Shown piece by piece: positions 4,220 through 22,097 of a DNA stretch of 64,000 nucleotides (positions are counted from its first letter, which is position 1; each line of letters begins with the position of its first letter). This stretch comes from an uncultured Caldithrix sp. (GTDB taxonomy: Bacteria > Calditrichota > Calditrichia > RBG-13-44-9). Location: the NCBI GenBank assembly GCA_964394475.1, contig CAYMXZ010000001.1:4480-68479 (forward strand), read 5' to 3'. The notes under the pieces were generated by a model. It saw only the letters and a list, made by a program, of their open reading frames with translations. It was not told the DNA's origin and did no database searches. Both the position numbers and the translations under genes were made by a program.

Positions 4220-7200
4220 ATGATACGAAAAACCAAAAGTTTTATGAGGTTCTCCGGTAGTTATTTTTTTTGTTCGTTTTTTAGAAAGGCTCGGCGCTTC
4301 ACCGACTGTCTTTTTGTTCTGATGTTGTTTTTAAGCCATTCCCTCTTATTAGCGGATGTTCCTCATCCCGATCTTCTGAAAAAAATCTCGCAAGGTGAAA
4401 TTGAAGAACCGTATTATCTTAAAAATATTGATCGACTGCGCTCAGAGGGAGTCAACACCCCGGCCCTTTTGCCAGATGGGACAAAACCTGCTCTTCCCGC
4501 TGCCAATGGAGAGGCAAACTATAACGCTATTGCCATCCTGATTGATTTCAGCGATAATGTTTCGCAGGTAAACGCTTCTTATTTTGACAATTTGTTGTTC
4601 GGAACCGGCAACGGAACAGTTCGCCATTATTATAATGAAGTAACCTATGGAAATTTAACCGTAGTAACAGTAAATCTTCCAAGTTCTCTGGGCTGGAAAA
4701 GAGCGCCACAGACTTATAGTTATTACACCAATAACAGCAATGGATTAGGAAGTTATCCTCAAAATGCTCAAAAATTGGCGGAAGATGCCATCGCGCTGGC
4801 TAATCCCTATGTTAATTTTTCCCAATACGATAATAATAATGATGGCTACGTGGATGCCTTATTTATCATCCATGCTGGTCCGGGGGCTGAATTCACCGGC
4901 AACAATAATCATATCTGGTCGCATAAATGGTCTACTTATACCCCTCAATTGGTGGATGGGGTATATGCTTACATCTATTCCATGGAGCCCGAATTCTGGC
5001 AGAATCCAGGAGATATGACCTGTGGTGTCTACGCGCATGAGATGGGGCATGCGGTATTTTCTTTTCCTGATGTATATGATCGTGATGGAAGCTCTAAAGG
5101 GCTGGGTCGCTGGAGTCTGATGGCGAATGGCAGTTGGAACGGCACTCTGGGAAATTCTCCTGCTCACCCGGATGCCTGGAATCGGTCGAAGATGGGATAC
5201 GTTACTCCAGTGAATATTACCAGCGATGTAAATCACTATCCCATTCCAAATATACAGAACAATCAGGTCCTGGTTCGGTTGTGGAGACAAGGGCAAATTG
5301 GAAATCAATATTTTTTAATTGAAAATCGCCAGCGAGTGGGATATGATGCCGCCCTCCCAGCGGATGGATTGTGCATTTATCATGTGGATGAAAGTGTCAC
5401 CACCCAGAATGACCGCGAGTGGTATCCCGGTTACACCAGCAATGGCCATTATCTGGTGGCCTTAGAACAAGCCGATGGGTTATGGAGCATGGAAAAAAAT
5501 GTCAACAGCGGAAATAATGGTGATCCGTTTCCTGGCTCAACCAATAAAACGGTTTTCGATTCCACCTCTACCCCAGACAGTAAAGACTATAATTTTAATT
5601 CAACGAAAGTAGCGGTGAGAAACATCAGTGCTTCGGCAAATGTGATGTATGCCGATTTAATGGTTGGCAATCCACAACTTGTGCCAGACATTGAAATTTC
5701 CCCTTCGTCCTTCACCTTTAATGTGTTTCAAAATGACACCATGAGTCAAGATATGCAAATCGCTAATACAGGTAATGCCAATCTCATCTGGTCAATTAGC
5801 GAGTTAAATGAAAGCCATAGGGAGGTATACGGCAATTCAACTCCAACTATCACTGCCGATTGGCTTTCTGAGAATCCGACCTCTGGATTGATTCCTGCCG
5901 GAAGCAGTCGACAGGTGAAACTTTCAGTCAATGCTGCGGGAATGGCCGCAGGAAGCTATGTCTGTAGCCTGAGCGTTGCCAGTAACGATCCCGATGAAAA
6001 TCCCTGGATGGTTTTAGTGACCATGAATGTATCAGCGGTTCCGGTAAACCAACCACCGGTAGCGATAAATGATATTTTTTCGGTAAAAGAAGATCAGCTA
6101 ATTATCGCAAATATTTTGTATAATGATTATGATCCAGATGGTTCGATAAATCCCTCTTCGGTAACCGTTGTCTCTCCTCCTCAAAATGGGTCGTTCAGTG
6201 TAAATTCCACGAATGGTCGAATAACCTATCAACCCGATGATAATTTTTATGGATCAGACCAACTGAGTTATACCGTGCAGGATAATCAGGGAGCGGTTTC
6301 AAATGTGGCACAGTTGATCATCACCGTTGAACCAGTAAATGATCCACCCGATTTATCAAATCTCCCCGATGTTTTTTTTGCTGAAGACAGTTCCTCAACA
6401 CTGTTGCTGAATTCCTATGTAGTAGATGTGGATCATAGTTTCTCTCAACTAAACTTTTTTGCACAGGTGCTTACTGCTGGAAGTAATCTATCAATTGCTG
6501 GAGGTGAAAGGTTTTTGATCGAACCAACAGATCTGCAAATCACCATCGATCCGGTATCGCATGCGGCCAGTTTTCACTGTACGACTGATTCATCCGGGGT
6601 TTTCAGTGTTAGATTCACGGTAGTGGATGACAGCGGGGCGACTGATAGTGATACGATAAGTGTTACTGTTCATCCCGTGAATGATCCCCCATTGATCACT
6701 GAACTACCTGATAGTCTTTATATTTTGAATGATTCCACTCTGACTTTTTCCATATGGGATTTTGTTCGCGACCCGGAAACGCCGGATTCCACTTTACAGT
6801 ATCAGTTCAGTCAGAATCCGGTTCAGTTAATGCTAAATTTTCAGAATAAAGATGGCCAATTGCAGCTGACGCCTTTAGCCGGAAGTGCAGGAGAGGTTAA
6901 AGTGGTGGTATTGGTGACTGATCCAGAAGGGTTATCAACCGCAGATACTATCTCGGTCATTATAGAAGCATTGGTTCGCCTTGAAAATTCTTCTCTGCCT
7001 CAGGTACCAACAGTGTATTTTTTAGATCAAAATTATCCCAATCCTTTCAATCCATCGACTACTATCCGGTTTGGTCTCCCCCAGCCGAGCTGGATAAAGA
7101 TAGAAATTTTTAATCTGCCGGGTCAATGCCTAAAAGTTATTGAAGAAAGCCAGCGACCAGCCGGAATTCATACTATATTGTTTAACGCGGCAGACCTGGC

Positions 7201-7294
7201 CAGTGGAATTTATTTCTATCGGCTTTCTGCCGTGTCTGTGATAGAGCAAGGGCATTATATTTCGCAGATTAAAAAGATGATTCTTATTCGTTGA
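4220..7294 (+). CDS. M6-family (immune-inhibitor-A-like) zinc metalloprotease with tandem cadherin/VCBS-like repeat domains and C-terminal T9SS (Por) sorting domain
   Basis: The signal peptide is followed by HEMGHAVFSFPDVYD (HExxH), which fits the M6/InhA catalytic core. After that come repeated ~100-aa modules containing VNDPP / YNDYDPDG motifs. The C-terminus ..QNYPNPFNPSTTIRFGLP...SGIYFYRL...KKMILIR matches the T9SS type-A C-terminal domain consensus. Confidence 0.85.
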   Translation: MIRKTKSFMRFSGSYFFCSFFRKARRFTDCLFVLMLFLSHSLLLADVPHPDLLKKISQGEIEEPYYLKNIDRLRSEGVNTPALLPDGTKPALPAANGEANYNAIAILIDFSDNVSQVNASYFDNLLFGTGNGTVRHYYNEVTYGNLTVVTVNLPSSLGWKRAPQTYSYYTNNSNGLGSYPQNAQKLAEDAIALANPYVNFSQYDNNNDGYVDALFIIHAGPGAEFTGNNNHIWSHKWSTYTPQLVDGVYAYIYSMEPEFWQNPGDMTCGVYAHEMGHAVFSFPDVYDRDGSSKGLGRWSLMANGSWNGTLGNSPAHPDAWNRSKMGYVTPVNITSDVNHYPIPNIQNNQVLVRLWRQGQIGNQYFLIENRQRVGYDAALPADGLCIYHVDESVTTQNDREWYPGYTSNGHYLVALEQADGLWSMEKNVNSGNNGDPFPGSTNKTVFDSTSTPDSKDYNFNSTKVAVRNISASANVMYADLMVGNPQLVPDIEISPSSFTFNVFQNDTMSQDMQIANTGNANLIWSISELNESHREVYGNSTPTITADWLSENPTSGLIPAGSSRQVKLSVNAAGMAAGSYVCSLSVASNDPDENPWMVLVTMNVSAVPVNQPPVAINDIFSVKEDQLIIANILYNDYDPDGSINPSSVTVVSPPQNGSFSVNSTNGRITYQPDDNFYGSDQLSYTVQDNQGAVSNVAQLIITVEPVNDPPDLSNLPDVFFAEDSSSTLLLNSYVVDVDHSFSQLNFFAQVLTAGSNLSIAGGERFLIEPTDLQITIDPVSHAASFHCTTDSSGVFSVRFTVVDDSGATDSDTISVTVHPVNDPPLITELPDSLYILNDSTLTFSIWDFVRDPETPDSTLQYQFSQNPVQLMLNFQNKDGQLQLTPLAGSAGEVKVVVLVTDPEGLSTADTISVIIEALVRLENSSLPQVPTVYFLDQNYPNPFNPSTTIRFGLPQPSWIKIEIFNLPGQCLKVIEESQRPAGIHTILFNAADLASGIYFYRLSAVSVIEQGHYISQIKKMILIR

Positions 7295-7475: not shown

Positions 7476-8144
7476 ATGGAGGAAAATATGAAGAAATTTC
7501 ATGAGCAGTTGCTGGCCGAAAACAGGGATCTGTGGACAGCGATTTTGAGTCATCCTTTCCTGCAGGAAACGGCCAGTGGGAAAATTTCGGAACGTACCTT
7601 TAAGACCTGGATGCAACAGGATTATGTTTTTGTAAAAGAAGCTATACCATTTGTAGCGATTTTATTGGCCAAAGCGCCAGAAAATATGCGTTCTCAATTC
7701 ATCCAAATTCTGGCGGGATTAGATCAGGAGTTAGCCCTGTTTCAGAAAAATGCCGCCGATAAGAAAGTCAATTTAAAAAAGGTCAATGCTGCCCCCACCT
7801 GCCATGCCTATTTGCAATTTCTTATGGCGACTGCTTATAACGGTAGTTTTGTGGAAGGATTCACGGTACTATATGCTGCCGAAAAAGTATATCTGGATTC
7901 CTGGATGGAAGTGAAAAGAAAATTAAGAGGGAAAAGTCCCTGGAAGAGTTTTATCGATAACTGGACCAGTAAAGGATTTCAGCAATATGTGGATTGGTTA
8001 GCCGGGACTTTAGATCAGTTAGTTAAGAATTTTCCATCCCATGCTCTTCGTTCACTGCATGAATTATTTCAAACCACTGCTCGATATGAGTATCTTTTCT
8101 GGGATATGGCTTATAAAGAAGAAAAGTGGCTACCGAGGATGTAA
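7476..8144 (+). CDS. tenA: TenA/Thi-4/PqqC-family protein (thiaminase II / aminopyrimidine salvage, haem-oxygenase-like fold)
   Basis: The 222-aa protein has ..FHEQLLAENRDLWTAILSHPFLQETASGKISERTFKTWMQQDYVFVKEA.. at its N-terminus. This matches the TenA signature (F..L....W......HPF...L..G.L....F..Y..QDY.Y). Confidence 0.7.
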   Translation: MEENMKKFHEQLLAENRDLWTAILSHPFLQETASGKISERTFKTWMQQDYVFVKEAIPFVAILLAKAPENMRSQFIQILAGLDQELALFQKNAADKKVNLKKVNAAPTCHAYLQFLMATAYNGSFVEGFTVLYAAEKVYLDSWMEVKRKLRGKSPWKSFIDNWTSKGFQQYVDWLAGTLDQLVKNFPSHALRSLHELFQTTARYEYLFWDMAYKEEKWLPRM

Positions 8145-8150
8145 GGGTTA

Positions 8151-8172
8151 ATCGCTATAAAGGCATAGCGAT
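8151..8172. terminator. Possible bidirectional hairpin between convergent genes (tenA + / lipoprotein -)
   Basis: ATCGCTAT-aaaggc-ATAGCGAT forms a perfect 8-bp inverted repeat sitting 6 nt after the tenA stop. The flanking sequence is A/T-rich but lacks a clean U-tract. Confidence 0.25.
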
Positions 8173-8179
8173 AAAATCT

Positions 8180-8722
8180 TTAGAAAATCGATTCACGGTC
8201 TCGCCAGTAAGCGTCCGGGTTACGCTGGAGGGTGTAGCGTTTGTCACCCATTTTAAAAACTAATTCTTTAATCTGGTAGACAACCGGACTGAAAACTCCA
8301 TCAAGCTGGAAAAAAATTAATCGACTTTGGCCTGGATCTACAGATGTGGGATAATCTCGCAGTTTGGTAATTTTACCCAGAGAGTAAATTTTATTGTCAT
8401 AGGTCATGGTAAGTATGTCGTTGTAGTAATTCATCGGAATGGGTGATATACCTCTATTGATTACCAGAAACTCATACTGATAAGAGCCCGGGATTTCTCC
8501 CGGTCGAATCCGAGCCGCTAAGGTGAGCAGATTGTCTTGATAAATATAATGACCGGTTTTATAGTTATCAATGCCGAAAACGGGTGTTTTCTTCATCGTA
8601 CTTTTTACACCGCACGAAAATGAAACCGTGGACATCACAATATATAAAACTCCGAGATAAAATCCCTTTTGGCTAAGGAGATAGAAATTTTTTACTCTCA
8701 AAAATTTGTTCGGCATTTTCAT
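8180..8722 (-). CDS. Hypothetical lipoprotein/secreted protein
   Basis: The 180-aa protein has a hydrophobic N-terminus ending ..VSFSCG (lipobox-like). No recognisable catalytic motif is present. Confidence 0.45.
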   Translation of the reverse strand: MKMPNKFLRVKNFYLLSQKGFYLGVLYIVMSTVSFSCGVKSTMKKTPVFGIDNYKTGHYIYQDNLLTLAARIRPGEIPGSYQYEFLVINRGISPIPMNYYNDILTMTYDNKIYSLGKITKLRDYPTSVDPGQSRLIFFQLDGVFSPVVYQIKELVFKMGDKRYTLQRNPDAYWRDRESIF

Positions 8723-8986
8723 CGTATAGAAATATAAAGAATCCGCTGTTAGATATAATCGTTTTATTTAAAATAAACTCAACCGTCCCACACCAATAAT
8801 TCTTTAGAAGTTTTTCCTAAAGATATATTAGAAATGACCGCTCATCAATAGTCAAAATAGGATTTTTTTATTTTTCGTTCAAATCTTGTTCTATCTTCAA
8901 TCAGGTTTTTAAATTCAAGGAAGTGTTTAAAAATGGCTGGATGAGTATGTATAAGACGAATGAAAAAAAATGACATAATAGAGAGT

Positions 8987-9658
8987 TTACCAAATTCCAG
9001 GTAATATACGGAATTTCACTTTTTGACAATATTCTCGATAACCTATAAATTCCTTCTGCAAAGTCCGATCTTCCAGGGCGGTTCGAACAAATAACAAAAC
9101 GCCTACCAGAATAGCGGGAATAAGTGCCCAGAGCGATCCCAATGCCAGAGCCATTGAACTAACCATCAGGATGATACCTAAGTAACCGGGATGACGAACA
9201 TATCGGTAAGGGCCATCGGAGATTACGGTTTGTTCCCTTTCATGCTGTATCCTTACGGTGCTGGCGTAGAATTTATTTGATCGGATAGCCCAGATATGAA
9301 AAAGGGCGGAAACAATAAAAACCAGATAAGCGATGAGGTAAAGGTAAGAAGAGTAGGCAGGCGACCAATGAAAACGACCGGCATCTAATCCGGCAATTAC
9401 CGGAATCGCCAGGTTCATCGGACCATAAATCAGCCAGAATAGAATATCCCACCATTTTGTACCCGGTCCGCTTTTCATACGATCCTGAATTTCTTTAAAA
9501 TTTTTGCCAAATAGGAATGATATGCCGATGACTACCAACAAACAAATGAATCCGAATAGCCAGGCTTGCCAATAATTTAGTCTGCCCGCTAATATTATGA
9601 GCAATGTGATGAGAAAAACAATAGCAACTGACCCGCGTAAGATTAGAGAAAAATTCAT
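8987..9658 (-). CDS. Membrane methyltransferase of the isoprenylcysteine carboxyl methyltransferase (ICMT)/PEMT/DUF1295 superfamily
   Basis: The 223-aa protein is polytopic. Its C-terminal region ..GPYRYVRHPGYLGIILMVSSMALALGS...RTALEDRTLQKEF carries the RHP.Y...EE motif characteristic of ICMT-family SAM-dependent methyltransferases. Confidence 0.7.
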   Translation of the reverse strand: MNFSLILRGSVAIVFLITLLIILAGRLNYWQAWLFGFICLLVVIGISFLFGKNFKEIQDRMKSGPGTKWWDILFWLIYGPMNLAIPVIAGLDAGRFHWSPAYSSYLYLIAYLVFIVSALFHIWAIRSNKFYASTVRIQHEREQTVISDGPYRYVRHPGYLGIILMVSSMALALGSLWALIPAILVGVLLFVRTALEDRTLQKEFIGYREYCQKVKFRILPGIW

Positions 9659-9674
9659 TTTTAAACGGTAATTT

Positions 9675-10421
9675 TTAATCTTGACGATGGTTATTGACAG
9701 AAAAATCGTTTTTAAAGAATCCCAATTTTTTGGCCATTTTGATAATTCCTCTTCCCATGGCTGATACCTGAAAAGCCTGGGCTGGATTATTCCATCCTTT
9801 TTCTTTCTTAATTTTATACCATTGCCGAGATTCAGGTAAGGCCGATATATTTAAAAGGAGGTTTACTAAAATTATATACAAAATAACATAAATATCATGG
9901 GTTCGATACCATAACCACGGAATAAGGAAAAGCAATCCGATGGTGTACGTCAGATATAAATCTCTCAAAATAATAAGTCCAAAGATTAAACCACTGAAGG
10001 CACCGACGAAGACCCCTATCCAATCAATGGCAAAAATGCCTCCGTAGATGGCTGAAATGCCTCGCCCGCCGCGGAATTTGTGATATACTGGCCAGATGTG
10101 GCCCACCACTCCAGTCGTCGCAAAAACTAAATAATAATGAAATTCTGGAAACTGTGATTTTAAAAAGATAGTTGGAATGAATACTTTTAGCACATCACAG
10201 ACGTATGTTAAAAAACCAAACTTAGGCCCAACGTTGGTTGATACGGTAGTGGCGCTTACCAACTTCGTCACAATCTTCTTATCACTTCCTTGAATTCCGA
10301 ACGCAGTTTCTTCTGGCACTTTTTTATTTCTGCTAAACACATAGGTGATAATACGGGCAGAGGATATCGATCCGATTAAATATCCCCCAATAGCGCTGCT
10401 TAATAAAGGCAATATATTCAT
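9675..10421 (-). CDS. Divergent PlsY-family (acyl-phosphate:glycerol-3-phosphate acyltransferase-like) membrane protein
   Basis: GYLIGSISSARII lines up with PlsY's YL.GSI.SA.LV. GHIWPVYHKFRGGRGISA lines up with PlsY's GHIWPVFFGFKGGKGVAT. The canonical SGN.GATN motif is replaced (..TTVSTNVGPKFG..). There is a ~25-aa insertion after TM1. The protein is 248 aa. Confidence 0.6.
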   Translation of the reverse strand: MNILPLLSSAIGGYLIGSISSARIITYVFSRNKKVPEETAFGIQGSDKKIVTKLVSATTVSTNVGPKFGFLTYVCDVLKVFIPTIFLKSQFPEFHYYLVFATTGVVGHIWPVYHKFRGGRGISAIYGGIFAIDWIGVFVGAFSGLIFGLIILRDLYLTYTIGLLFLIPWLWYRTHDIYVILYIILVNLLLNISALPESRQWYKIKKEKGWNNPAQAFQVSAMGRGIIKMAKKLGFFKNDFSVNNHRQD

Positions 10422-10439
10422 GGTTTGACCTCCACTGAA

Positions 10440-12896
10440 TTAAAAATGTTTGAGATAAACCCGTCCGGTATATCCATCGATGGTTAATTTCTGTCCATTT
10501 TTAATAATTTTTGTGGCATTTCTTACGCTCAAAACCGCTGGTAATCCGTATTCGCGCGCAATAATAGCGCCATGAGATAGTTGACCGCCGGTTTCTGTAA
10601 TAATACCACCAATATTCGGAAATAAAGGTGTCCATCCGACATCGGTGAAAGGGACAATGAGAATATCTTGCCGGTTCAAACCAATTTTTACATCAGCAGG
10701 ATCATAGATGACTCTGGCATATCCCTGCACCCTCCCTGCACTACCGCTTATTCCCTGCAGCCACTCTTCTTTTTCCTGCGGAATGAATGAAATTGCATCC
10801 TCACAAATTATCTCAGGTGGGGTTATATTCGTATCGCTGGCAATTTCTTTTATTCTTATTTCAACAATTCTTTTTGGATCGAAATTTTTACTCTCATTAG
10901 TAATCAGTTGCTGTAACTCTGAGTAAGAAAGGTGAAAAATATCATCTCGATGGAGTAAATATTTTTTTTCTACCAATTGCTCTCCCATTGTAAGGTAAAT
11001 ACGGCGCATCTGATAGGAATCTTCAGACATAAAAAGACTTAATTTTTCGCGAAGTTTTATATAAGTAATGGTGGAATGCAACATACTATTAAAAATTATT
11101 CTCCTCCAGAAATTTAATTTTTGCTTTACATTTCGGATTGCTTTTTCTCGTTCTGTAGATCTAAAGCTCTCAGCATTGGTCACTGGTGATTCCAATTGTC
11201 GATGAATAGCCATCAATATAATCGACGGATTCTCGATCCATGGAGCTATAGAGAAATCGGTTCCGTTCATGCTCAGATGACCATAATGGTTTAAGAACTC
11301 GTTAAATTTTTTCAAAAAGGTCTGACCTTCCATACGTTCCTGCACAATAGCCGGGAAAGAAGCAGAAGGGTTACTCGGGATGGTTAACTCTAATTTTCTG
11401 GCCAGTGCAGCCAATTCATGAATTTTTTGGTTGGGCTCCAGAGATTTTAATCCGATCAACCCGCTGATAAGATCGTTTGGATTGACTTCAGGCACATATC
11501 GATTGACAAATTTTTTTAATATTCTGTTACGGATGGTCATATTCATCGCTCCGATCCACATATACCACTGGGTTTGGCGATGATATTTTCTTAAAATTTG
11601 TATATGGTGAAGTAGAGCCTCTAATCGAAAATTTTTCCATTCCTGCTTTCGGAAATTACTGAGCCGCTCTTCATGGAGGTGGATAAAATTTTGTAATTTC
11701 TTTTTAATCATGGAATATTCCACCAAAAATATGATGAAACGTAAGCTGGTTTTTACGACTCGCAGGGAAAATTTCGGGTAGCGGTTGATCGCCTTTTCAT
11801 CTCGCAGAATAGATTCAAAATAATTGATCGGTAAACCGATCTTCTGAAAAACGTCGGCCAGAAAAGTGATATTGACATACACTCTGGAGTGTATTTTTTT
11901 GATTAAATGGTGGAAGTTTATATCATTTGGTCCATAGATGTAGCTAAATATACGGCCGAAAACATTGGTGGTCATATCGAGCAGATTGGTGGACCACACC
12001 AGATTTTTAATTAATCCAGGGGTCATATCAGAAACCAGTCGATTCGAATAGACCGGCTTCACGGTGATCGTCGTAATGGGTCGTGATTGGAGAATATAGA
12101 AAGATGAACCATCCCAGGCCCATTCCACGTCCTGTGGAGTATGAAACAGCGCACTTATTTTTTTTACAATTTTTCCCAGTTCTTGTATTTGTGCAGGAGA
12201 GAGAACTGGTGAAGATGAATCCATGAGATGCTGTTCCACTAATTTCAACTCTGGATTAAGCAGATAACGATCGGGAGTTATATGGCCGGCCGCTAATTTT
12301 TCTCCCAGACCTGAAGTGGCCTCAATCAGGATGCACGGATGGCCAGTCATCGGATTGGCACTAAAAGCGACTCCGGCCGCTTTAGCTGAAATCATTTTTT
12401 GGATGATTATTGACATGGATAGCGGAGCGGAGCGTTTGAATTTCTCATTTTGTCCCAACTCTTTGCGATAGGTGATAAAACGTTTGTTCAAAATTCCAGT
12501 ATAACATTTTTGTATCGCAGCAATAAGCTGGTCATAATTTGTTATTTGCAGAAAAGAATCCAGTTGTCCAGCGTGGGAAGTATCAATTCTGTCTTCGCCG
12601 ACCACCGAGGAACGAACGGCTAAAGGCCAATCAATCGCATGCTGAATTTTCAGTAACTCTAATTTTATTTTCTCTGGCAGCTCGTCAAGAATAAAAAGCC
12701 GTCCTTCATCGGTTTTTCGAATCATTTTTCGAAAAACCCGGCTGGAAAGAATGATAGCAGGTGGAACATTAAATCCCATTTGATAAAGTTTGGCCAGGTT
12801 TGCACCTTTTCCCCCTGCTAATTTTTCCTGGCAGGCGCGTTTTTCAGATAATTGGATCAGATAACGACTCATATCGGCGAATTTATTTTGAAACAT
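10440..12896 (-). CDS. PEP-utilising-enzyme-family phosphotransferase (PpsA/pyruvate-phosphate-dikinase/rifampicin-phosphotransferase-like architecture; substrate unknown)
   Basis: The 818-aa protein has an N-terminal PPDK_N-type ATP-grasp region (..LAGGKGANLAKLYQMGFNVPP..). Its C-terminal swivelling phosphohistidine domain (..NIGGIITETGGQLSHGAIIAREYGLPAV..) has the catalytic His in a GG..SH.AI.ARE context. A long middle domain lies between them, as in rifampicin phosphotransferase. Confidence 0.8.
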   Translation of the reverse strand: MFQNKFADMSRYLIQLSEKRACQEKLAGGKGANLAKLYQMGFNVPPAIILSSRVFRKMIRKTDEGRLFILDELPEKIKLELLKIQHAIDWPLAVRSSVVGEDRIDTSHAGQLDSFLQITNYDQLIAAIQKCYTGILNKRFITYRKELGQNEKFKRSAPLSMSIIIQKMISAKAAGVAFSANPMTGHPCILIEATSGLGEKLAAGHITPDRYLLNPELKLVEQHLMDSSSPVLSPAQIQELGKIVKKISALFHTPQDVEWAWDGSSFYILQSRPITTITVKPVYSNRLVSDMTPGLIKNLVWSTNLLDMTTNVFGRIFSYIYGPNDINFHHLIKKIHSRVYVNITFLADVFQKIGLPINYFESILRDEKAINRYPKFSLRVVKTSLRFIIFLVEYSMIKKKLQNFIHLHEERLSNFRKQEWKNFRLEALLHHIQILRKYHRQTQWYMWIGAMNMTIRNRILKKFVNRYVPEVNPNDLISGLIGLKSLEPNQKIHELAALARKLELTIPSNPSASFPAIVQERMEGQTFLKKFNEFLNHYGHLSMNGTDFSIAPWIENPSIILMAIHRQLESPVTNAESFRSTEREKAIRNVKQKLNFWRRIIFNSMLHSTITYIKLREKLSLFMSEDSYQMRRIYLTMGEQLVEKKYLLHRDDIFHLSYSELQQLITNESKNFDPKRIVEIRIKEIASDTNITPPEIICEDAISFIPQEKEEWLQGISGSAGRVQGYARVIYDPADVKIGLNRQDILIVPFTDVGWTPLFPNIGGIITETGGQLSHGAIIAREYGLPAVLSVRNATKIIKNGQKLTIDGYTGRVYLKHF

Positions 12897-13283
12897 TTAA
12901 AATTTTTTAACACAAAATCAGCATCATCTTTTGGATAACGATACTTCCATTCCTGCTTTTTGCCCGTAATCCAAAATCTAAATCAAGTAACTCGCGTCAA
13001 CGAGAAGTTTTATCTCATGGTAACCTTAACTGCCCATTATTTTTTAAAATTATGATTCTCATACTAAGCCCAATGCTACTGGGATGTGAGTAAACCATAT
13101 TATGTTTTCAGACAAGTCTTACTGATCCTTCATTTTTCACCGTCCCTGTTGTTGCATAAAGAACAAAATAATAATGGATTTTTCTCTTCTTTTCTCAAAC
13201 TACTTATAGTTAAGATCTTTTAAAAATAAAGTTAGGAGCTATCTAACAAATTTTTATTTGCCAAATAAATTTAAAAAGACTTA

Positions 13284-14021
13284 TTATTTTCGTAAAGAAG
13301 CCTTGGAAAAGATGTACTCTGGTATTTCGGCATTAAATTCAATTGATCGAATAATAAAAGTAGTTCCTTCGCCGCTTTTTAGCACATCTTTGAAATTGAT
13401 TTCGGTTGCTACCCAGCGTTTTCCGATGTATTCGACTTTTTTAATTTCAGTAGTTTTCAGTAATTTTCCGCTCTTGGCGAAGCGTTCCTCTTTTAAAATA
13501 ACAAATCTTTCCTGATCCACCCAGATTTTGCGAGTGGCATAGGCTACATCCGATAGCTTGGCAGTTAATTGAAGCTTCCAGCATGGGCGGTCAGTTACAA
13601 GTTCTTCGCCGATTATGGTGGCATTGTACAGATCGGTGAGTCGTGCGTCTTCCATTAAATCTTCATATGAAAGGTCTGATCCCATGACCGATTGTCGTAA
13701 CATGTGACCGGAGATCCGGATGGTTCGGTCAGTTGAAGGGGTATAAGTCCACAATTGATCGGCAATTTTTAGCATTTTGGTACCCCTCTCCCGCGGGGGC
13801 TCTAGATATTCAGTGAATGATTGTTCTCTCCCCTGAATCCAGGATTTTAATACAATGGTTCGATTCCCGCGCTGGCCACTGATATGCATCTCCGCCAGGG
13901 ACACTTTATTTTCCGAGCCGAGATTTTGGTCAATCCTTCTCAAAATCCACTCCCCACCGGGCTCTTGCGCAAATAAGTTGACTATAATAGACCAGATCAA
14001 AATAAAAATAAGATTTTTCAT
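13284..14021 (-). CDS. LolA-like periplasmic 'outer-membrane lipoprotein-sorting' protein
   Basis: The 245-aa protein has a cleavable signal peptide (MKNLIFILIWSIIVNLFAQE). Its size and beta-rich composition fit LolA-like half-barrel carriers. It overlaps the upstream permease by 4 nt. Confidence 0.55.
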   Translation of the reverse strand: MKNLIFILIWSIIVNLFAQEPGGEWILRRIDQNLGSENKVSLAEMHISGQRGNRTIVLKSWIQGREQSFTEYLEPPRERGTKMLKIADQLWTYTPSTDRTIRISGHMLRQSVMGSDLSYEDLMEDARLTDLYNATIIGEELVTDRPCWKLQLTAKLSDVAYATRKIWVDQERFVILKEERFAKSGKLLKTTEIKKVEYIGKRWVATEINFKDVLKSGEGTTFIIRSIEFNAEIPEYIFSKASLRK

Positions 14022-15292
14022 GCTTCGAATTCCTTACTTAACTGAGAAGTTTGTCTTTTAAAAATTCCTATACCCGCCATAGCAGTTCCCAGGAAAGTAG
14101 CTACTAATCCCGGAATGAATCCAATAATAAAACTCACTGGAGTAATCTGAGCACGCAATACATCGGAGATGACCATCGAGGCATTTTTCAACATTCCAGA
14201 AATATCCAGTCCCTTCACCTGCAGATAGTACGATATTGCTAAACCAAGTAAGGTACCTAAAATGGAACCCATCAAGCCAATGATTAAAGATTCAGCGATC
14301 ATTAATAGATAGAGATGTCTTTTATCTTCTCCGATGGCTAGGCGGATGCCAATTTCTCCATAGCGGCGTAAACTGGACATCAAACCGGCATTCCACAAAA
14401 CGATGGCCATAATGATAACAAATATGCCCACGAAAATAGAAGATAGATAGGTGGTATAGTCTAAAATTTGTGCTAATCCCGCTTGCTCGCGCAGGGTAAA
14501 CATTTCCGGTGAAAAGGAATCATCGCTCTGGGAAAATTTAGCATTAAATTTTTTCGCTATTTCTTTGGCCTGTTCATGGTGATAAAGGTGATCGTTAAAA
14601 AAACCAAGAATTTCCCCCGCCGCATCCGGCATATCAAGCGCCTGCTGGATATCATGAAGATCAGAGATCATGGCCCCGCGATCCATAGCCGATATTCCAA
14701 ATCGGATGGTTCCTACTATTTTGAAATTATAGGTGGCCATACTCCCATACATGCTGGAACTAATAAGAGTGGCAGTTTCATTTAGAGAAGCCTTCAGTTT
14801 TTGATACAATTCTTCACTCACCAGAATTTCCCCCGTTTGGGCGGGCAATCGTCCACGAACTAAAGCTCTGGAGAGTCGCAGGATCTGCGGTTCCAGGTTC
14901 TTGCCGGAAAACAAATCTACTCCCATACCGGCAATCGGGCTTTGACTTCTGGTCTCTCCCGAGTCGTCTGGAATATCCAGCAATCCCCCAAAACGAATGC
15001 GAGCGGTCCAATCCAGTTGGGGAAAATCGGCATAAAGCTGGTTCAACAGAGAATCCACGCCCATGTAAGCCAGGTCATTGGGAAGTTGATCGGCCTGTCT
15101 GGCATAGGCACGGGACATCACTTTTAGATGGCCAGTATTAAAGTTTGCATTCGCTTGTATGATATCATTTTCTGTACCTTTGATCCAACAGTAAAGCAAG
15201 ACGGTTAGACTAACTCCTGCCATTACGATAAGAAGGGGAAAAAGACTGCGCGAACGGTCACGGATTATACCTTTGATAATAAAAAAGATCAT
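14018..15292 (-). CDS. ABC transporter permease, FtsX/MacB/LolC-E type
   Basis: The 424-aa protein has an N-terminal TM helix, a ~200-aa periplasmic domain and C-terminal FtsX-type TM helices. It overlaps both the upstream and downstream genes by 4 nt. Confidence 0.8.
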   Translation of the reverse strand: MIFFIIKGIIRDRSRSLFPLLIVMAGVSLTVLLYCWIKGTENDIIQANANFNTGHLKVMSRAYARQADQLPNDLAYMGVDSLLNQLYADFPQLDWTARIRFGGLLDIPDDSGETRSQSPIAGMGVDLFSGKNLEPQILRLSRALVRGRLPAQTGEILVSEELYQKLKASLNETATLISSSMYGSMATYNFKIVGTIRFGISAMDRGAMISDLHDIQQALDMPDAAGEILGFFNDHLYHHEQAKEIAKKFNAKFSQSDDSFSPEMFTLREQAGLAQILDYTTYLSSIFVGIFVIIMAIVLWNAGLMSSLRRYGEIGIRLAIGEDKRHLYLLMIAESLIIGLMGSILGTLLGLAISYYLQVKGLDISGMLKNASMVISDVLRAQITPVSFIIGFIPGLVATFLGTAMAGIGIFKRQTSQLSKEFEA

Positions 15293-16461
15293 ATCATTCT
15301 TCCCCGCAATGCATCGGTTGGTTTAAGTTTGGAAATTTTTCGGGTTGGCAGGAAACTGACGATGGTAGTAACCATTAAAACCAGCAATGTCGTTCCAATG
15401 ATCAAACCTGCACTAAAAGCTGGAAATAATTTTTCGCCGATGGCAAAACCATAGGAATCTGCCTGGGTGGGAAGCTTCCAGCCAACTCTGACGAAGTAGG
15501 ATAATAGTGGGATGCCGTATGCCGCCGCCAAAATGACTGCCAGAACTCCATGCAGGCTACCCTCCAGCGTGAAAAGTCTGATTACCTCTCCGCGGGTCAT
15601 TCCCAGGGCCATTAAAGTCCCCATTTCTTTGCGCCGGCGAAATATGGAAAGCACCTGCGTATCAAAAATAGCCAACATCGCTAAAAATAAGAGCAGAAGA
15701 TAAATAATTGAAGAACCCACTGATTTTGATTTCACTAACTCATTTATGTCTTTGAGTAAAAAGTGGATATCTCTAAACTTCCAGCCCTCGAGGGATGGCC
15801 GATTGACCACTCCAGATCTCATGATCACCAGCGTGGCCTCATCCGTTACTCCAACCATCTCCTGTAGCAATTGAAGAGGAATCCACAGTTGTCCAATATC
15901 AATGGTCTGAACGGAGGTTTGCATTATTTGTACAATTTCCACTTCTTTGGCATCATAGGTGCCATTCACATCGCGCCATTGTAAAATCACCTGATCGCCC
16001 TGCTTTAGACCGGTGCTTTCTGCCATTCGCCGACCGATGAGAGCCGGGATCATATCGCTCGTGCCATGTAAAAAATGCGAAGGGATGGCAATTAATTTCT
16101 GCTCGGGGTCAATTCCATTAATAATAATTGGTTTGATTCTTCCTCCTGGATAAATAGTTCCAGGTATAATAAGCAAGGGTGTTGCCTCACCCATAGAAAT
16201 GAATTTTTTTAACGTTTCAGGGAGTGGTTGATGAGATTCATCCAGCGTCAAAGGATCATAAGGGTCGTAGTTTTCACTCCAGTATTGACCACCGCCATAA
16301 TAGGTGTCGATCATGGCCTGTGCCGTTTGCTTATTCATCCCTTCTAACAAACCCTGCAACGAAACAATGGCAAAGAAAGCAAAGGAGAGCACAATCACAT
16401 TTAACCAGGTACGTAAACCGGCCCCCAGTAAATTTTGCAGAGCTAATTTGATGATCACCAT
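15289..16461 (-). CDS. ABC transporter permease, FtsX/MacB/LolC-E type (second paralogue)
   Basis: The 390-aa protein has the same architecture as the neighbouring permease. The two different permeases plus one ATPase parallel LolC/LolE/LolD. Confidence 0.8.
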   Translation of the reverse strand: MVIIKLALQNLLGAGLRTWLNVIVLSFAFFAIVSLQGLLEGMNKQTAQAMIDTYYGGGQYWSENYDPYDPLTLDESHQPLPETLKKFISMGEATPLLIIPGTIYPGGRIKPIIINGIDPEQKLIAIPSHFLHGTSDMIPALIGRRMAESTGLKQGDQVILQWRDVNGTYDAKEVEIVQIMQTSVQTIDIGQLWIPLQLLQEMVGVTDEATLVIMRSGVVNRPSLEGWKFRDIHFLLKDINELVKSKSVGSSIIYLLLLFLAMLAIFDTQVLSIFRRRKEMGTLMALGMTRGEVIRLFTLEGSLHGVLAVILAAAYGIPLLSYFVRVGWKLPTQADSYGFAIGEKLFPAFSAGLIIGTTLLVLMVTTIVSFLPTRKISKLKPTDALRGRMI

Positions 16462-16496
16462 ATTTTATTCATCTTTAATTTTTTGAGTGAATGATT

Positions 16497-17192
16497 TTAT
16501 TCTTTCTTTTCGTCCTTTACAACTTTGCCATCAAATAAAGTAATTTTTCGTTTCAGATATTGGATCACCTTTTCATCATGGGTAGAAAAAATAAAAGTCG
16601 TGTGCAATTCCCTGTTTAAATTTTCCATGGTTTTCAGAATATGATGCGAATTTTCTGCATCCAGGTTGGCGGTGGGTTCATCGGCCAGAATGATTTCTGG
16701 ATTTTTCACGACGGCTCGGGCAATGGCTACCCGCTGACTTTCTCCTCCTGAAAGTTGATTGGGCCTGGAATTGGCGCGATCCTGCAAGTAGACCCACTCC
16801 AGAGCTTGCATTACTCTTTTTTTCCTCTCACTCGCTGACAAACGCTGCAATAATAATGGAAATTCAACATTTTCATATACCGTATAAACAGGCAATAAAT
16901 TGAAAGTCTGAAAAATAAATCCAATATGATAGTTCCGCAATTTGGCCGCGCTTTTGTGAGAGAGGGTTTCCACCCGATGCTTTAATACCATCACGCTTCC
17001 GCTGGTCGGGATATCCAGTGAACCAACGATATTTAATAATGTAGTTTTTCCCGATCCGCTTGGACCTACTATTCCGGCAAATTCGCCTCTATAAAAGGTT
17101 AAGTTTATGTGATCTAACGCCATCAGCTGGTTTTGACCCATTGGATATATTTTTACCACATCTCGCGTTTCGATAAGAATTTCGTTCTTCAT
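16497..17192 (-). CDS. ABC transporter ATP-binding protein (LolD/MacB-ATPase type)
   Basis: Walker A is GPSGSGKTTLLNIVG. The ABC signature is [14 protein letters not shown]. Walker B is IILADEPT. The protein is 231 aa. Confidence 0.9.
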   Translation of the reverse strand: MKNEILIETRDVVKIYPMGQNQLMALDHINLTFYRGEFAGIVGPSGSGKTTLLNIVGSLDIPTSGSVMVLKHRVETLSHKSAAKLRNYHIGFIFQTFNLLPVYTVYENVEFPLLLQRLSASERKKRVMQALEWVYLQDRANSRPNQLSGGESQRVAIARAVVKNPEIILADEPTANLDAENSHHILKTMENLNRELHTTFIFSTHDEKVIQYLKRKITLFDGKVVKDEKKE

Positions 17193-17229
17193 GCTCTCCT
17201 CAAAAAAGTAAAATATTCAACAGATGCGC

Positions 17230-18369
17230 CTAATGATTAAACACCACCATGATCTGAAAACCTTTACCAGCGAAATTATTGACAACTGAGGAACTGGAAT
17301 ATGTACGAGTAATTTCTGGATTCCAAAATGCCATCAAGAAAAAAGACCAGTGATCATAAGTTCTCCGCCAACTAAAAAAACGATAGTAATCTTCCTGCTT
17401 CCAGTGGTAATACAAAATTCCTTGCAACTGATCCATGATTCCAATGGGATAGTTGAAAGAAACCCCGCTAATAGAAAATCCTTCTCCAGCAGTAAACGCG
17501 TTATCAGCCTCTTCTGAGATGAAGTGTTCGGCTAAAAGGTTCAGACCGTTGCCAATCTTGAGAGTGTAATCTGCACCAATATTTCCCAGATGTCTCCAGG
17601 CATAGGGCCATAATTGATTGCTTTGCTGTGAAATGGTGAACTCCAGCCAAAGTCCAATTTCAAGATCCCATTTACCATCCACACCAAAACGATTCTCAAT
17701 CCCGGTCTGCTTGCCAAAGATGTCGATGGGAAGCAGTTTCTCGTTGAGTTGCAGTTTTCTGTGATGGAAGGATAAGGCCACTTCTCCCGCCGGCATTGGA
17801 TACTGGATTCTTCCCCCAAATTCTGGTTGGTCTTTCAGAGAAGGATGAATTTCCCAACCCCGCAGATCTTTGTTTCCGATTAATCCCCATAACCAGATAT
17901 TGGCATTGTTCAGGAAGTAATAACGCAAAAGCACGGCATACACTCCGCTGGTGATCTGTAACGGATCTCGCGGATCCAGTGAGTCGAACCACATCAGTGG
18001 CCGGAAAAGAGTAGCCGATCCAAAATTGATTTTCTGCAAACCAATCCGGAATTCGAATTGAGAGGTGGAGTATCGAGACCAAAATCGATAAAGTTTAATG
18101 TCTTGTGATGATTCACTTTTTTGAAAATTGTGGAAACGTCCGGAATGAAAGGCATTTAACGAAAATTCAAGATCCATATTATGTTCGCCGGGGAGAGCGT
18201 GGTGGAACATCAGGGTGGGAAGATAACGGATTCCATAAAAATGGTCTGGTGATGCGATATCATTCTGACCATACCAGCCGGAAAGCTCTCCCTGCCAACC
18301 GATTGGTTTGGCATAAAGCTTCAGCATAAGCAATAAAACTATCACAAGGAACTGCAGGAACTTTCTCAT
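17230..18369 (-). CDS. Secreted hypothetical protein, probable outer-membrane beta-barrel
   Basis: The 379-aa protein has a signal peptide (MRKFLQFLVIVLLLMLKLYA). It is rich in alternating aromatic/hydrophilic beta-strand-like segments (..YTLKIGNGLNL.., ..GFSISGVSFNYPIG..). It is the first gene of the ABC/LolA-like operon. Confidence 0.45.
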   Translation of the reverse strand: MRKFLQFLVIVLLLMLKLYAKPIGWQGELSGWYGQNDIASPDHFYGIRYLPTLMFHHALPGEHNMDLEFSLNAFHSGRFHNFQKSESSQDIKLYRFWSRYSTSQFEFRIGLQKINFGSATLFRPLMWFDSLDPRDPLQITSGVYAVLLRYYFLNNANIWLWGLIGNKDLRGWEIHPSLKDQPEFGGRIQYPMPAGEVALSFHHRKLQLNEKLLPIDIFGKQTGIENRFGVDGKWDLEIGLWLEFTISQQSNQLWPYAWRHLGNIGADYTLKIGNGLNLLAEHFISEEADNAFTAGEGFSISGVSFNYPIGIMDQLQGILYYHWKQEDYYRFFSWRRTYDHWSFFLMAFWNPEITRTYSSSSVVNNFAGKGFQIMVVFNH

Positions 18370-18817
18370 TGCTTCGAATGCTCCGTATAATCCAATAATA
18401 TTTTGTGATATATTTCAAGTCAAATCAAGCCCTAAATATCTCTGATGGTATACACTTTTTATTCAAAGTCAGAGATTCACAAAATTTCTGGTAAATAAAC
18501 CATTTCTCAATCATAGGCAACCATGGTTGTTAATTATGGGTATAAGTGGACGTTCCCACTTTCCTGCTATAATTCATTTGAGAATAATTTCATAGACCAT
18601 CCATCTTAGAAAAAACATCAGAATTCGGGGTGGAATCGCTTAACCCAACAAATCTTTGCCTAAGAATTCTCCAGGCAAAATTTTAAAAATAATTTATGTA
18701 ACCCACTGTTTGATTTTTCGTATTTGCAATTGTTTTGTGAATTCATTGAAGAATTGATCTGTTTTAAAAACAGTGAAGATAACGGGGAAGTCAATTTCAA
18801 ATGGAGAAAATTGTCTT
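18370..18817. promoter_or_regulatory. Divergent control region between two MacB/Lol-type ABC operons; contains perfect palindromes CAACCATGGTTG (18518-18529) and CTGTTTTAAAAACAG (18759-18773)
   Basis: This ~450-bp AT-rich non-coding region lies between the minus-strand operon (start 18369) and the plus-strand operon (likely start 18818). The two dyad-symmetric sites are seen directly in the sequence. Confidence 0.3.
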
Positions 18818-20074
18818 ATGTCGAAGAAACGAATTTTAATTCTGGCCATTGCTCTGGGAGTCATCATTGTTGTGCTGGTTGCTATTCTTTCTCGCAATGG
18901 GGGTGTGAAACCAATAAGTGTGCAGACCGCTAAAGTGTATCACCAAAAAATTGTGGAAACAGTGACGGCCACGGGTCGTATTCAACCGCAAACGCAGGTA
19001 AAAATAAGCGCCGATGTAGCGGCGAAAATTATTCAATTGGGAGTAAAGGAAGGGGATTGGGTGGAGAAAGGGCAATTTTTAGTTCAGCTGGATAGAGAGC
19101 GATTTCTGGCGGCGGTGCAGCGTGCCGAGGCAAATGTTCGTTCTGCCGAAGCCGATGCGAAACTGGCCAAAGAAAATTTATTAAAAGTGGAAAAAGATTA
19201 CCAGCGCAGCAAAGAACTATTCCAGCGCCAATTAGAATCGCAAGCGGTGCATGATCAGGCCTATGCGGCGTATCAGGTGGAAAAAGCCCGCTATCAATCT
19301 GCACTGGAGATGGTTGAACAGGCGCGCGCCACCTTGAAGCAAGCACAGGACGATCTCTCGAAAACCACCATTTACGCCCCAATGGCCGGCACCATCAGCA
19401 CATTGAATAAAGAAGTGGGGGAAATTGCTTTGGGATCTCAATTTCAGGAAGATGTGATTCTGATTGTGTCGGATCTGAATGGCATGGAAGCCCAGGTTGA
19501 CGTGGATGAAAATGATATCGTTAATGTCGCTATCGGAGATAGTGCAACCATTGAAGTTGATGCTCTGCCAGATAAAATTTTTAAAGGAACTGTTACTGAA
19601 ATCGCCAGCAGTGCCAAAATTTCCGGACAGGGTTCGGCTGACCAGAAAACGGATTTTGAAGTAAAAATTCATGTACTGGATGCGGGAGATTTGTTGCGGC
19701 CAGGAATGACCGCCAGCAGTGATATTATCACTGATATCCGTGACAGCGCTTTGGCCGTTCCCATTCAGTGTGTGGCAGTTCGCACACCTGATCAACTTAA
19801 ACCACTGCAGCCCGCTGTCAAAACCAACGAAGCAATGGCCGATGATTCCTCTCTTCAAAATTATGTCCCGGGCAAAGATGGTTTTGTGGAAGTGGTATTT
19901 GTGGTGAAAAATAAAATGGTCGAAGCCCGGCAGGTAAAAACTGGTATTCAAAGCGATACCCACATTGAAATTATAGAAGGTCTGAACCTGGATGATGAAA
20001 TCGTAATTGGCAATTATCGGGCGATCAGTCAAGATCTCCGCAATGGCTCCATCGTGACTTACGCTCAAAAATAA
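18818..20074 (+). CDS. HlyD/MacA-family periplasmic adaptor (membrane fusion protein)
   Basis: An N-terminal TM anchor (MSKKRILILAIALGVIIVVLVAIL) is followed by a biotinyl/lipoyl-like region and a long coiled-coil hairpin (..RAEANVRSAEADAKLAKENLLKVEKDYQRSKELFQ..). A beta-barrel and membrane-proximal domains follow. The track ORF starts at 18773; the Met at 18818 precedes the TM segment. Confidence 0.8.
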   Translation: MSKKRILILAIALGVIIVVLVAILSRNGGVKPISVQTAKVYHQKIVETVTATGRIQPQTQVKISADVAAKIIQLGVKEGDWVEKGQFLVQLDRERFLAAVQRAEANVRSAEADAKLAKENLLKVEKDYQRSKELFQRQLESQAVHDQAYAAYQVEKARYQSALEMVEQARATLKQAQDDLSKTTIYAPMAGTISTLNKEVGEIALGSQFQEDVILIVSDLNGMEAQVDVDENDIVNVAIGDSATIEVDALPDKIFKGTVTEIASSAKISGQGSADQKTDFEVKIHVLDAGDLLRPGMTASSDIITDIRDSALAVPIQCVAVRTPDQLKPLQPAVKTNEAMADDSSLQNYVPGKDGFVEVVFVVKNKMVEARQVKTGIQSDTHIEIIEGLNLDDEIVIGNYRAISQDLRNGSIVTYAQK

Positions 20075-20122
20075 AGATGACAATGATGAAATGAATGAAA
20101 CAGGAAGGAAAGGGGAAGAAGC

Positions 20123-20818
20123 ATGTCGCTTAGAATAGTAGATGTGATCAAAACTTATAAAATGGGTAATGAAATTATTGCCGCTCTGCAGGGAGTTTCT
20201 TTAGAGGTAGGGGAAAATGAGTATCTGGCTATTATGGGACCATCGGGTTCTGGTAAATCGACTATGATGAACATTTTAGGTTGTCTGGATAAACCCACCA
20301 GCGGGAATTACTTCTTAGGGGAACAGGATGTGAGCAAAATGAACGATGATCAGTTGGCCGATATTCGGAATCAAAAAATTGGTTTTGTATTTCAAACCTT
20401 TAATTTACTTCCTCGCGCCGATGTATTTCACAATGTCGAACTGCCTATGATATACAGTGGAATATCGGCTTCCAGACGCCGTCGGCTGGCAGAAGAAGCG
20501 ATTGAGAAAGTCGGATTGGCTGATCGGATGAAACATAAACCGAGCGAGTTATCCGGGGGACAGCGACAAAGGGTAGCCATTGCCCGAGCGCTGGTGAATA
20601 ACCCCTCTATTATTCTGGCCGATGAACCAACCGGCAATTTGGATTCGGCCACCGGTAAGGAAATTATGAGCATTTTCGACCAGCTTCATCGAGCGGGTAA
20701 TACCATCATTCTGGTCACTCATGAAAATGATATCGCCATGTATGCCCATCGGATTGTTCGTCTGAAGGATGGAATGATTGAAAGTGACTCGTCAAATCAT
20801 AAACATTATGCCGCCTGA
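20123..20818 (+). CDS. ABC transporter ATP-binding protein (MacB-type ATPase)
   Basis: Walker A is [15 protein letters not shown]. The ABC signature is [14 protein letters not shown]. Walker B is ILADEPT. The protein is 231 aa. Confidence 0.9.
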
Positions 20819-20839
20819 GAAAAAATCTGATGAACCGTT

Positions 20840-22075: not shown

Positions 22076-22097
22076 GATCAAATGAGAGAAGGAAATT

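Follow-up and report, generated by a model that had tools for sequence, protein, structure and literature searches.

PlsY is seen as an enzyme with one function, the commitment of acyl chains to phospholipid, and we know of acyl-phosphate solely from PlsX or FakAB. In the Aquifex enzyme (aaPlsY), acyl-phosphate is bound by H92, T41 and the backbone "phosphate hole" of loop 100-107, glycerol-3-phosphate (G3P) is held by a phosphate clamp of S35, R45, K104 and N180 together with the 2-OH ligands S142 and H177, and the oxyanion is stabilised by N37 (PMC5700162). Among the enzymes of the rifampin phosphotransferase (Rph) family, PigC and HapC make a phospho-activated intermediate that is then displaced by a nucleophile (PMC13534948). 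Here we describe a locus in a 64,000-nucleotide (nt) stretch of DNA from an uncultured Caldithrix sp. (contig CAYMXZ010000001.1), hereafter the window, in which a gene for a divergent PlsY-like protein stands between a gene for an Rph-type kinase and one for an ICMT-like membrane methyltransferase. We found that the kinase and PlsY-like genes are kept together across many phyla, and we propose that the window carries one copy of a conserved, uncharacterised envelope-lipid module. Tentatively, we suggest that the kinase turns a lipophilic acid into an acyl-phosphate and that the PlsY-like enzyme transfers the acyl group to an acceptor other than G3P.

A conserved pair of kinase and PlsY-like genes

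The first-pass annotation of this DNA had described three genes on one strand with gaps of 18 and 16 nt between them, and the coordinates of the open reading frames (ORFs) bear this out. All three lie on the minus strand (Table 1), encoding proteins of 818, 248 and 223 amino acids (aa) in the order kinase, PlsY-like and ICMT-like. The 18-nt spacer between the first two reads TAA ttcagtggaggtcaaacc ATG, with a GGAGG 8 nt ahead of the ATG, and the 16-nt spacer separates the second from the third. The start of the kinase gene is ambiguous: the homologues usually begin at the residue aligned with M9, so that the ATG at 12872 is possible instead of that at 12896. The nearest named relatives come from Calditrichaeota or Calditrichia bacteria (57-68% identity). 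Such short spacers are ordinary by themselves; the linkage of the kinase and PlsY-like genes is more than chance because their neighbourhood is kept across phyla.

A protein search returned at least 263 close relatives of the PlsY-like protein. Relatives were found in 474 of 185,579 species when one genome per species was scanned, and a full hidden Markov model search of 1.84 billion representatives yielded 142 clusters (50% identity) at E <= 1e-30. The family is real but rare, and this rarity implies that it is not a housekeeping PlsY. The kinase gene adjoins the PlsY-like gene in 69 of 80 species genome loci. Eight of the 11 non-adjacent loci are at contig ends with less than 2.3 kb of flanking DNA, and the kinase is absent with full flanks at three loci only, all of them from Chloroflexota. 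In the reverse direction, a search seeded with the kinase alignment found the PlsY-like gene in 60 of 80 metagenome loci, including every locus of the type A arrangement (see below) with sufficient downstream DNA. The linkage proposed at first pass therefore holds for these two genes, for which coincidental adjacency fails as an explanation in both directions. The conserved unit is the kinase/PlsY-like pair, not the trio.

The pair is carried by uncultured sediment and digester anaerobes from many phyla, with a host range of Calditrichota, Acidobacteriota (including Aminicenantes), Zixibacteria, KSB1, Cloacimonadota, Spirochaetota and Chloroflexota. Its loci take two forms. In type A the kinase gene comes first and the PlsY-like gene follows after a gap of 17-106 nt, an order found in Calditrichota, Krumholzibacteria, Aminicenantes and other Acidobacteriota, Zixibacteria, KSB1, Cloacimonadota, WOR-3 and some Anaerolineae. 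In type B the PlsY-like gene leads and is followed by a more distant kinase (26-30% identity) and then by ATP-binding cassette (ABC) and FtsX genes; the hosts are mostly Chloroflexota, with one locus from Bacteroidota.

Several loci depart from a single copy of the pair. Two kinase/PlsY-like pairs stand in tandem in one of them (L121, 556-9240), a duplicated pair or PlsY-like gene is also seen in L003 (8001-11196), L034, L044, L074 and L078, and a number of Anaerolineae loci have a second PlsY-like paralogue, at times with a gene for a major facilitator superfamily (MFS) transporter between the copies. We considered these second Anaerolineae copies as canonical PlsY and rejected this, as they are members of the divergent family. 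Two further proteins, P0385 (622 aa) and P0403 (381 aa), consist of a PlsY-like N-terminal part and a p379-type barrel of the outer-membrane family described below. A signal-peptide-like segment lies between the parts, and we treat them as probably merged adjacent genes and not as true fusions; they show a further arrangement, with the PlsY-like gene directly upstream of the barrel gene. In one Chloroflexi locus (L049, 8504-9736) and in 12 others there is a gene for a membrane-anchored protein of 410 aa that is weakly similar to CbiX, ferrochelatase and nickelochelatase.

We found no description of the kinase/PlsY-like pair in the literature, which we searched for PlsY together with Rph, phosphoenolpyruvate (PEP) synthase or dikinase and for PlsY-like proteins, homologs and paralogs. 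All the parts come from known superfamilies; what is new is a PlsY subfamily with a dedicated Rph-type kinase and the architecture of the gene cluster.

Family assignment of the two core proteins

The 248-aa protein scores 61.2 bits against the Pfam model G3P_acyltransf (PF02660, cut-off 24.1) but only 55.9 bits against the PlsY equivalog TIGR00023, for which the cut-off is 137.2. It aligns to Aquifex PlsY (5xj5, E = 2e-10), and its AF2 model (pLDDT 83.6, pTM 0.80) has the seven-helix PlsY fold, with the aaPlsY structures 5xj5-5xj8 as the sole significant PDB matches in Foldseek (probability 1.00, target-normalised TM 0.76-0.80). It had been noted at first pass that the protein keeps the GHIWPVYHKFRGGRG motif, has lost SGNxGATN and has gained an insertion, and all three observations stand. 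SGNxGATN is replaced by TKLVSATT, and the insertion, of about 17 residues, follows the first transmembrane helix and is modelled as a beta-hairpin (residues 39-52). The protein also has a C-terminal extension or helix with an invariant MGRG, and R23, D133/W134 and PW.W.RT are invariant or highly conserved residues specific to the family.

Residue statistics were taken from 132 distinct members of the PlsY-like family from the fetched loci, aligned to the family profile. In the acyl-phosphate site, the equivalent of aaPlsY H92 (H108) is His in 131 of the 132 members, the phosphate-hole glycines G118, G119 and G121 are present in all 132, and the equivalent of T41 is Thr or Ser in 107. The residues of the G3P clamp and the oxyanion stabiliser behave differently: the S35 position is Leu, Val or Met in 97 members, the R45 position is Arg in none (Met, Ile, Leu, Ala or Val instead), the N37 position is Asn in none, and the K104 position is Arg in 104. 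The mapping of motif 3 (HxxNxxRL) is of low confidence and shifted (MAFFT, profile), such that N187 may match N180 and the H177 position appears hydrophobic. The alignment to curated PlsY that had been suggested as a check at first pass thus gives a divided answer, with the acyl-phosphate site of aaPlsY surviving and the clamp at S35 and R45, together with N37, lost across the family. The donor site looks intact and the acceptor site looks rebuilt, because the acyl-phosphate residues are kept whereas the clamp residues are replaced mostly by hydrophobic ones.

Judged by these models and alignments, the protein belongs to a separate subfamily, within the superfamily and outside the PlsY equivalog. 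Its homologues are named "glycerol-3-phosphate acyltransferase PlsY" in the databases, a label that at the level of specific function is, on the same grounds, wrong. No canonical PlsY was found in the 64-kb window or in the fetched loci when these were searched with the SGNxGATN motif and by phmmer with hand-entered E. coli and B. subtilis PlsY sequences as comparators.

In the 818-aa protein, Pfam identifies PPDK_N at residues 25-278 (177 bits) and the mobile domain of PEP-utilizers at residues 742-811 (82 bits), which places the mobile histidine domain at the extreme C-terminus; PEP-utilizers_C (PF02896), the PEP/pyruvate TIM barrel, is not matched. The protein falls below the cut-offs of all the specific models: 218 bits against PEP synthase (TIGR01418, cut-off 740), 294 and 208 bits against Rph (NF041857, cut-off 999, and NF000283, cut-off 1700), and 284-287 bits against the PigC/RedH equivalogs (cut-offs 1300-1350). 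No pig or red genes of a prodiginine cluster were found near the kinase gene in the window or in the neighbourhoods of the fetched loci. Its nearest solved relatives are structures of Listeria rifampin phosphotransferase, 5hv1 and 5fbs (E = 3e-70). In the alignment to 5hv1 the covered parts are the ATP-grasp domain and the stretch from 463 to 813; no alignment with Rph was obtained for residues 281-463, which make up the first half of the substrate domain. The catalytic histidine lies within GGQLSH775GAIIAREYG, where GGQLSHGAIIAREYG stands opposite the Rph catalytic-His motif GGLMTHGAVIAREYG, and both H775 and the GG.LSH..I.ARE motif are invariant among 28 homologues.

The order of the three domains and the position of the histidine in a C-terminal swivel domain are those of Rph. 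This agrees with the Rph/PpsA-like three-domain architecture read from the ORF at first pass, which the Pfam domains and the 5hv1 and 5fbs alignments uphold, while the homology comparison recommended there separates the two candidates: the Rph-type order was found and PEP synthase was ruled out (218 versus 740 bits). We assign the protein by homology to the Rph/PigC-type three-domain enzymes and not to PEP synthase, because the TIGR01418 cut-off is missed and the PEP/pyruvate TIM barrel is lacking. The database name of its homologues, "phosphoenolpyruvate synthase", is by this assignment wrong at the level of specific function.

Accessory genes and a Lol-like transporter

The product of the third gene scores 48.4 bits against ICMT (PF04140, cut-off 24) and 47.1 bits against PEMT (PF04191, cut-off 25), in agreement with the ICMT/PEMT superfamily named at first pass, and 41.8 bits against the isoprenylcysteine O-methyltransferase model NF040696, below the cut-off of 160. 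An ICMT-like gene is present in 16 of 120 pair loci and takes one of three positions: before the kinase gene, after the PlsY-like gene or inside the transporter operon. The ICMT family is large (5530 matches), and homologues at 46-50% identity occur in unrelated neighbourhoods. The gene is optional, given this low co-occurrence, the three positions and the other contexts of its homologues, and the idea of a three-gene cassette acting as a unit, put forward at first pass, does not survive the count.

Commoner than the ICMT-like gene is one for an alpha/beta hydrolase, present in 30 of the 120 pair loci and nearly always directly 3' of the PlsY-like gene (for example, L013, 8524-9270, and L003, 11186-11905). 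The hydrolase, a small cytoplasmic protein, has a GHSxG motif, matches Palm_thioest, PGAP1 and Lipase_3 weakly and is not encoded in this window. The ICMT-like gene likewise usually comes directly after the PlsY-like gene, and the two occur together in 2 loci only. The most fitting reading of the ICMT-like protein is that of one alternative among two tailoring or accessory activities, and not that of an obligatory member of a trio.

Directly upstream of the kinase gene, at 13284-18369, are five genes on the same strand that were absent from the first-pass annotation. Their products are an 18-strand barrel of the outer membrane, an ATPase and two permeases that resemble LolD and LolC/E, respectively, and a LolA-like protein; the stop of the permease gene at 14018 overlaps the start of the LolA-like gene. 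The architecture is that of Lol, with one ATPase, two MacB-type permeases and a LolA-fold periplasmic carrier, but the Lol equivalog cut-offs are missed (239 versus 308 bits for LolD, 50 and 29 versus 362 bits for lolCE) and the carrier matches the TP_0789-like/LolA_like family and not LolA proper. At least 4178 homologues, all named "hypothetical", make up the family of the 379-aa barrel, for which neither Pfam nor NCBIfam has a model; the barrel resembles the Occ/OprD substrate channels.

This Lol-like module adjoins the pair in the majority of double-membrane lineages, at 25 of approximately 38 non-Chloroflexi genome loci, and does so in two orientations, upstream in the same direction or downstream and convergent, with the LolA-like stop overlapping the kinase start in some loci (L012, L095). 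In 30 of 120 loci, each from a non-Chloroflexi lineage, the pair has the LolA-like gene nearby. A proximity that outlasts rearrangement argues for a functional link. The Chloroflexi clusters lack the periplasmic carrier and the barrel and keep an ABC/FtsX pair, consistent with a phylum that is commonly viewed as lacking an outer membrane. Because the module also exists on its own behind a TetR regulator, the kinase/PlsY-like pair seems to ride on an extraction or efflux machine of wider use. In the literature on LolA-like and FtsX proteins, we found as an analogue the Borrelia cluster BBJ23-29 alone, which combines LolA-like, MacB-type and outer-membrane-barrel proteins and whose cargo is unknown (PMC13078400).

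Table 1 Genes of the kinase/PlsY-like locus and the adjoining Lol-like module in the window.
Feature	Coordinates	Strand	Evidence
Rph/PigC-type three-domain phosphotransferase, core gene 1 (ATP-grasp, substrate domain, C-terminal swivelling His domain)	10440..12896	-	Pfam, NCBIfam, RPH structures, invariant H775
Divergent PlsY-family seven-helix membrane acyltransferase (predicted), core gene 2	9675..10421	-	PF02660, AF2/Foldseek, residue statistics
ICMT/PEMT-superfamily membrane methyltransferase, optional accessory	8987..9658	-	Pfam ICMT and PEMT
LolA-superfamily (TP_0789-like) periplasmic carrier	13284..14021	-	PF17131 203 bits; PDB 9tp6, 3buu (LolA superfamily)
FtsX/MacB-type (type VII ABC) permease, weakly LolC/E-like	14018..15292	-	Pfam FtsX; TIGR02212 lolCE 29 bits
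Second FtsX/MacB-type permease, weakly LolC/E-like	15289..16461	-	Pfam FtsX and weak MacB_PCD; TIGR02212 lolCE 50 bits
ABC ATPase, LolD the closest curated model	16497..17192	-	TIGR02211 239 bits (cut-off 308)
Signal peptide and 18-strand outer-membrane beta-barrel, 379 aa, family without a Pfam model	17230..18369	-	

An Rfam scan of positions 8000-19000 at E <= 1, which includes the 387-nt leader upstream of the kinase gene, gave no match. Scans for promoter and terminator consensus sequences gave counts equal to those of shuffled controls and were uninformative. Downstream of the ICMT-like gene, after a gap of 264 nt, lies an ORF of 180 aa (8180-8722, minus strand) with a hydrophobic N-terminus and a possible lipobox (VSFSC); we left it out of the module, as it has no family match and is conserved solely in the same organism. 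On the other side, a second, classical MacA/MacB-type efflux cluster (18773-23345, plus strand) diverges from the barrel gene and encodes an HlyD-family adaptor (433 aa), an ABC ATPase (231 aa) and two MacB_PCD+FtsX permeases (411 and 415 aa), such that two type VII ABC systems stand back to back in the window. Farther away, at 4220-7294 on the plus strand, is a gene for a 1024-aa secreted protein with an M6 (immune inhibitor A) peptidase domain, Big_9/cadherin-like repeats and a type IX secretion C-terminal sorting domain.

Possible function of the pair and comparison with known systems

The route that we favour would begin with the soluble kinase, which would use ATP to load the swivelling histidine H775 and then phosphorylate the carboxylate of a lipophilic acid, in the simplest case a free fatty acid, to give acyl-phosphate, AMP and inorganic phosphate. 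Such an enzyme would be a "fatty acid, water dikinase". Transfer from phosphohistidine to a carboxylate has a precedent in succinyl-CoA synthetase, in which succinyl phosphate is formed. The acyl-phosphate would then be bound by the PlsY-like enzyme in its retained phosphate hole, and the acyl group would pass, on the cytoplasmic side of the inner membrane, to an acceptor other than free G3P, probably a hydrophobic one without a phosphomonoester. The product may be tailored by the ICMT-type methyltransferase, as in this window, or by the lipase-like alpha/beta hydrolase, as in other genomes. In double-membrane lineages the Lol-like machine may draw this product, or free acid that is offending or in excess, out of the inner membrane and hand it on towards the outside. 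The sequence of activation, transfer and O-methylation suggested at first pass may be read in the same conditional sense. The pair could serve the biosynthesis of an exported lipid or the salvage or detoxification of free fatty acids.

Several points weigh against this route. We know of no Rph-family enzyme that phosphorylates a fatty acid. The K104 equivalent, which helps form the phosphate hole, is non-basic in 28 of the 132 PlsY-like members. A rebuilt clamp for G3P or another phosphate may exist, formed by the invariant R23 and the highly conserved R173 and R224, a possibility that arises because the alignment of motif 3 (H177/N180) is uncertain. The barrel-ABC-LolA-like module is far more widespread than the pair (at least 4178 homologues versus a few hundred), and TetR-barrel-ABC-FtsX-FtsX-TP_0789-like operons are also found without it (L086-L088); the linkage may therefore reflect shared regulation or a stress response and not one pathway. 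Finally, MacB-type transporters take their substrates from the periplasmic side, so that a product made at the cytoplasmic face would need an unexplained flipping step.

An unlikely alternative is a detoxification or resistance island, in which the Rph-like enzyme would phosphorylate a hydroxyl of a lipophilic xenobiotic or antibiotic, the pump would expel the compound, and the PlsY-like and ICMT-like proteins would modify or handle it in the membrane. Rifampin phosphotransferase is the nearest solved relative of the kinase, yet the curated Rph model scores the kinase at 294 bits for a cut-off of 999 and part of the substrate domain (281-463) is unaligned with Rph. The transporter speaks for this alternative, as a TetR regulator heads the barrel-ABC-FtsX-LolA-like operon in L002, L087 and L088, the operon also occurs as a stand-alone, efflux-pump-like unit, the barrel is Occ/OprD-like and a second pump of the MacAB type lies next door in the window. 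Phosphorylation of an antibiotic needs no partner, however, and the PlsY-like gene is nearly always present with its acyl-phosphate site kept; the distribution among uncultured sediment and digester anaerobes of many phyla also argues against resistance.

It is quite improbable that the Rph-like enzyme instead phosphorylates a membrane lipid, at the hydroxyl of a glycerolipid or a polyprenol, presented by a PlsY-like protein that has become a scaffold or receptor without acyltransferase chemistry. Such a role would fit the loss of the catalytic-support residue N37 and of the G3P clamp, and the modelled cytoplasmic beta-hairpin (39-52) and MGRG helix could form a docking surface. Rph and PpsA phosphorylate oxygens of non-carboxylate substrates, as do the plant glucan water dikinases. 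Against this, the phosphate hole and the H92 equivalent are kept in 131-132 of 132 members, which is the pattern of a working acyl-phosphate site and not of a scaffold. A housekeeping origin, with a normal PlsY, a PEP synthase and an ICMT-like gene adjacent by chance, is very improbable and largely refuted, for although it has the database names on its side and no canonical PlsY is seen elsewhere in the 64-kb window, the equivalog cut-offs are all missed by wide margins, PEP-utilizers_C and the G3P clamp are lacking, the family is far too rare (474 species, 142 clusters) and the synteny of the pair is strong.

Taken as a whole, the acyl-phosphate route would amount to a third source of acyl-phosphate, the first PlsY-family acyltransferase with a non-glycerol-phosphate acceptor, and a new class of envelope lipid that is methyl-esterified in some lineages and delivered to the outer membrane by a Lol-like ABC system in Calditrichota, Acidobacteriota, Zixibacteria, Cloacimonadota and relatives; that all of this holds together is rather doubtful. 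Nonetheless, a PlsY subfamily with its donor site kept and its acceptor site rebuilt, tied in hundreds of uncultured species to an Rph-type kinase of its own, suggests that acyl-phosphate chemistry serves another purpose in bacterial envelopes. The host phyla dominate anoxic sediments and digesters, where free long-chain fatty acids are a major stress, and the unusual lipids of these phyla are used as biomarkers. The pair also offers a functional handle on the 18-strand barrel family and on the TP_0789-like/MacB-type "second Lol" modules, which are also present in spirochaetes.

The transporter shares with LolCDE-LolA and Borrelia BBJ23-29 an ATPase nearest to LolD, two MacB-type permeases, a LolA-fold carrier and an outer-membrane barrel. 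It differs from Lol in missing the equivalog cut-offs, in the TetR regulation of related operons and in its barrel, an 18-strand Occ/AlgE-like channel and not Omp85 or LolB. The methyltransferase resembles ICMT/Ste14 in its Pfam ICMT/PEMT domains and as a multi-pass S-adenosylmethionine-dependent enzyme at the membrane interface, but it scores 42 versus 160 bits, is an occasional member of the cluster and does not imply a prenylated protein substrate.

By analogy, the proposed combination of ATP-dependent fatty-acid activation, membrane acyl transfer and a transporter would resemble Aas-LplT of E. coli, and some Chloroflexi clusters with an MFS gene between two PlsY-like genes add to this likeness. 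The enzyme families are unrelated, however, and Aas follows an acyl-AMP/acyl-ACP (acyl carrier protein) route; we rejected the MFS protein of these clusters as LplT, as it does not match the LplT model.

With Rph, PigC, RedH and HapC, the kinase has in common the order of ATP-grasp, substrate-binding and C-terminal catalytic swivel domains and the conserved catalytic histidine, and PigC and HapC use their phosphorylated intermediate as an activated electrophile in a further reaction. It stands apart from Rph and PigC in its scores (284-294 bits versus cut-offs of 999-1350), in the unaligned first half of its substrate domain, and in being paired with a membrane acyltransferase homologue, which the known Rph, PigC, RedH and HapC members are not. 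The PlsX/PlsY and FakAB/PlsY systems likewise have a PlsY-fold membrane enzyme with its acyl-phosphate site (the H92 and T41 equivalents and the GGxG phosphate hole), and as with FakA, the PlsY-like gene lies beside one for an ATP-dependent enzyme that may be able to supply a phosphorylated donor. Here, however, the partner is an Rph-type His-swivel dikinase and not PlsX or FakA/FakB, and the PlsY-like protein is set apart from canonical PlsY by the replacement of S35, R45 and N37, the extra beta-hairpin, the C-terminal MGRG helix and a TIGR00023 score of 56 versus 137 bits.

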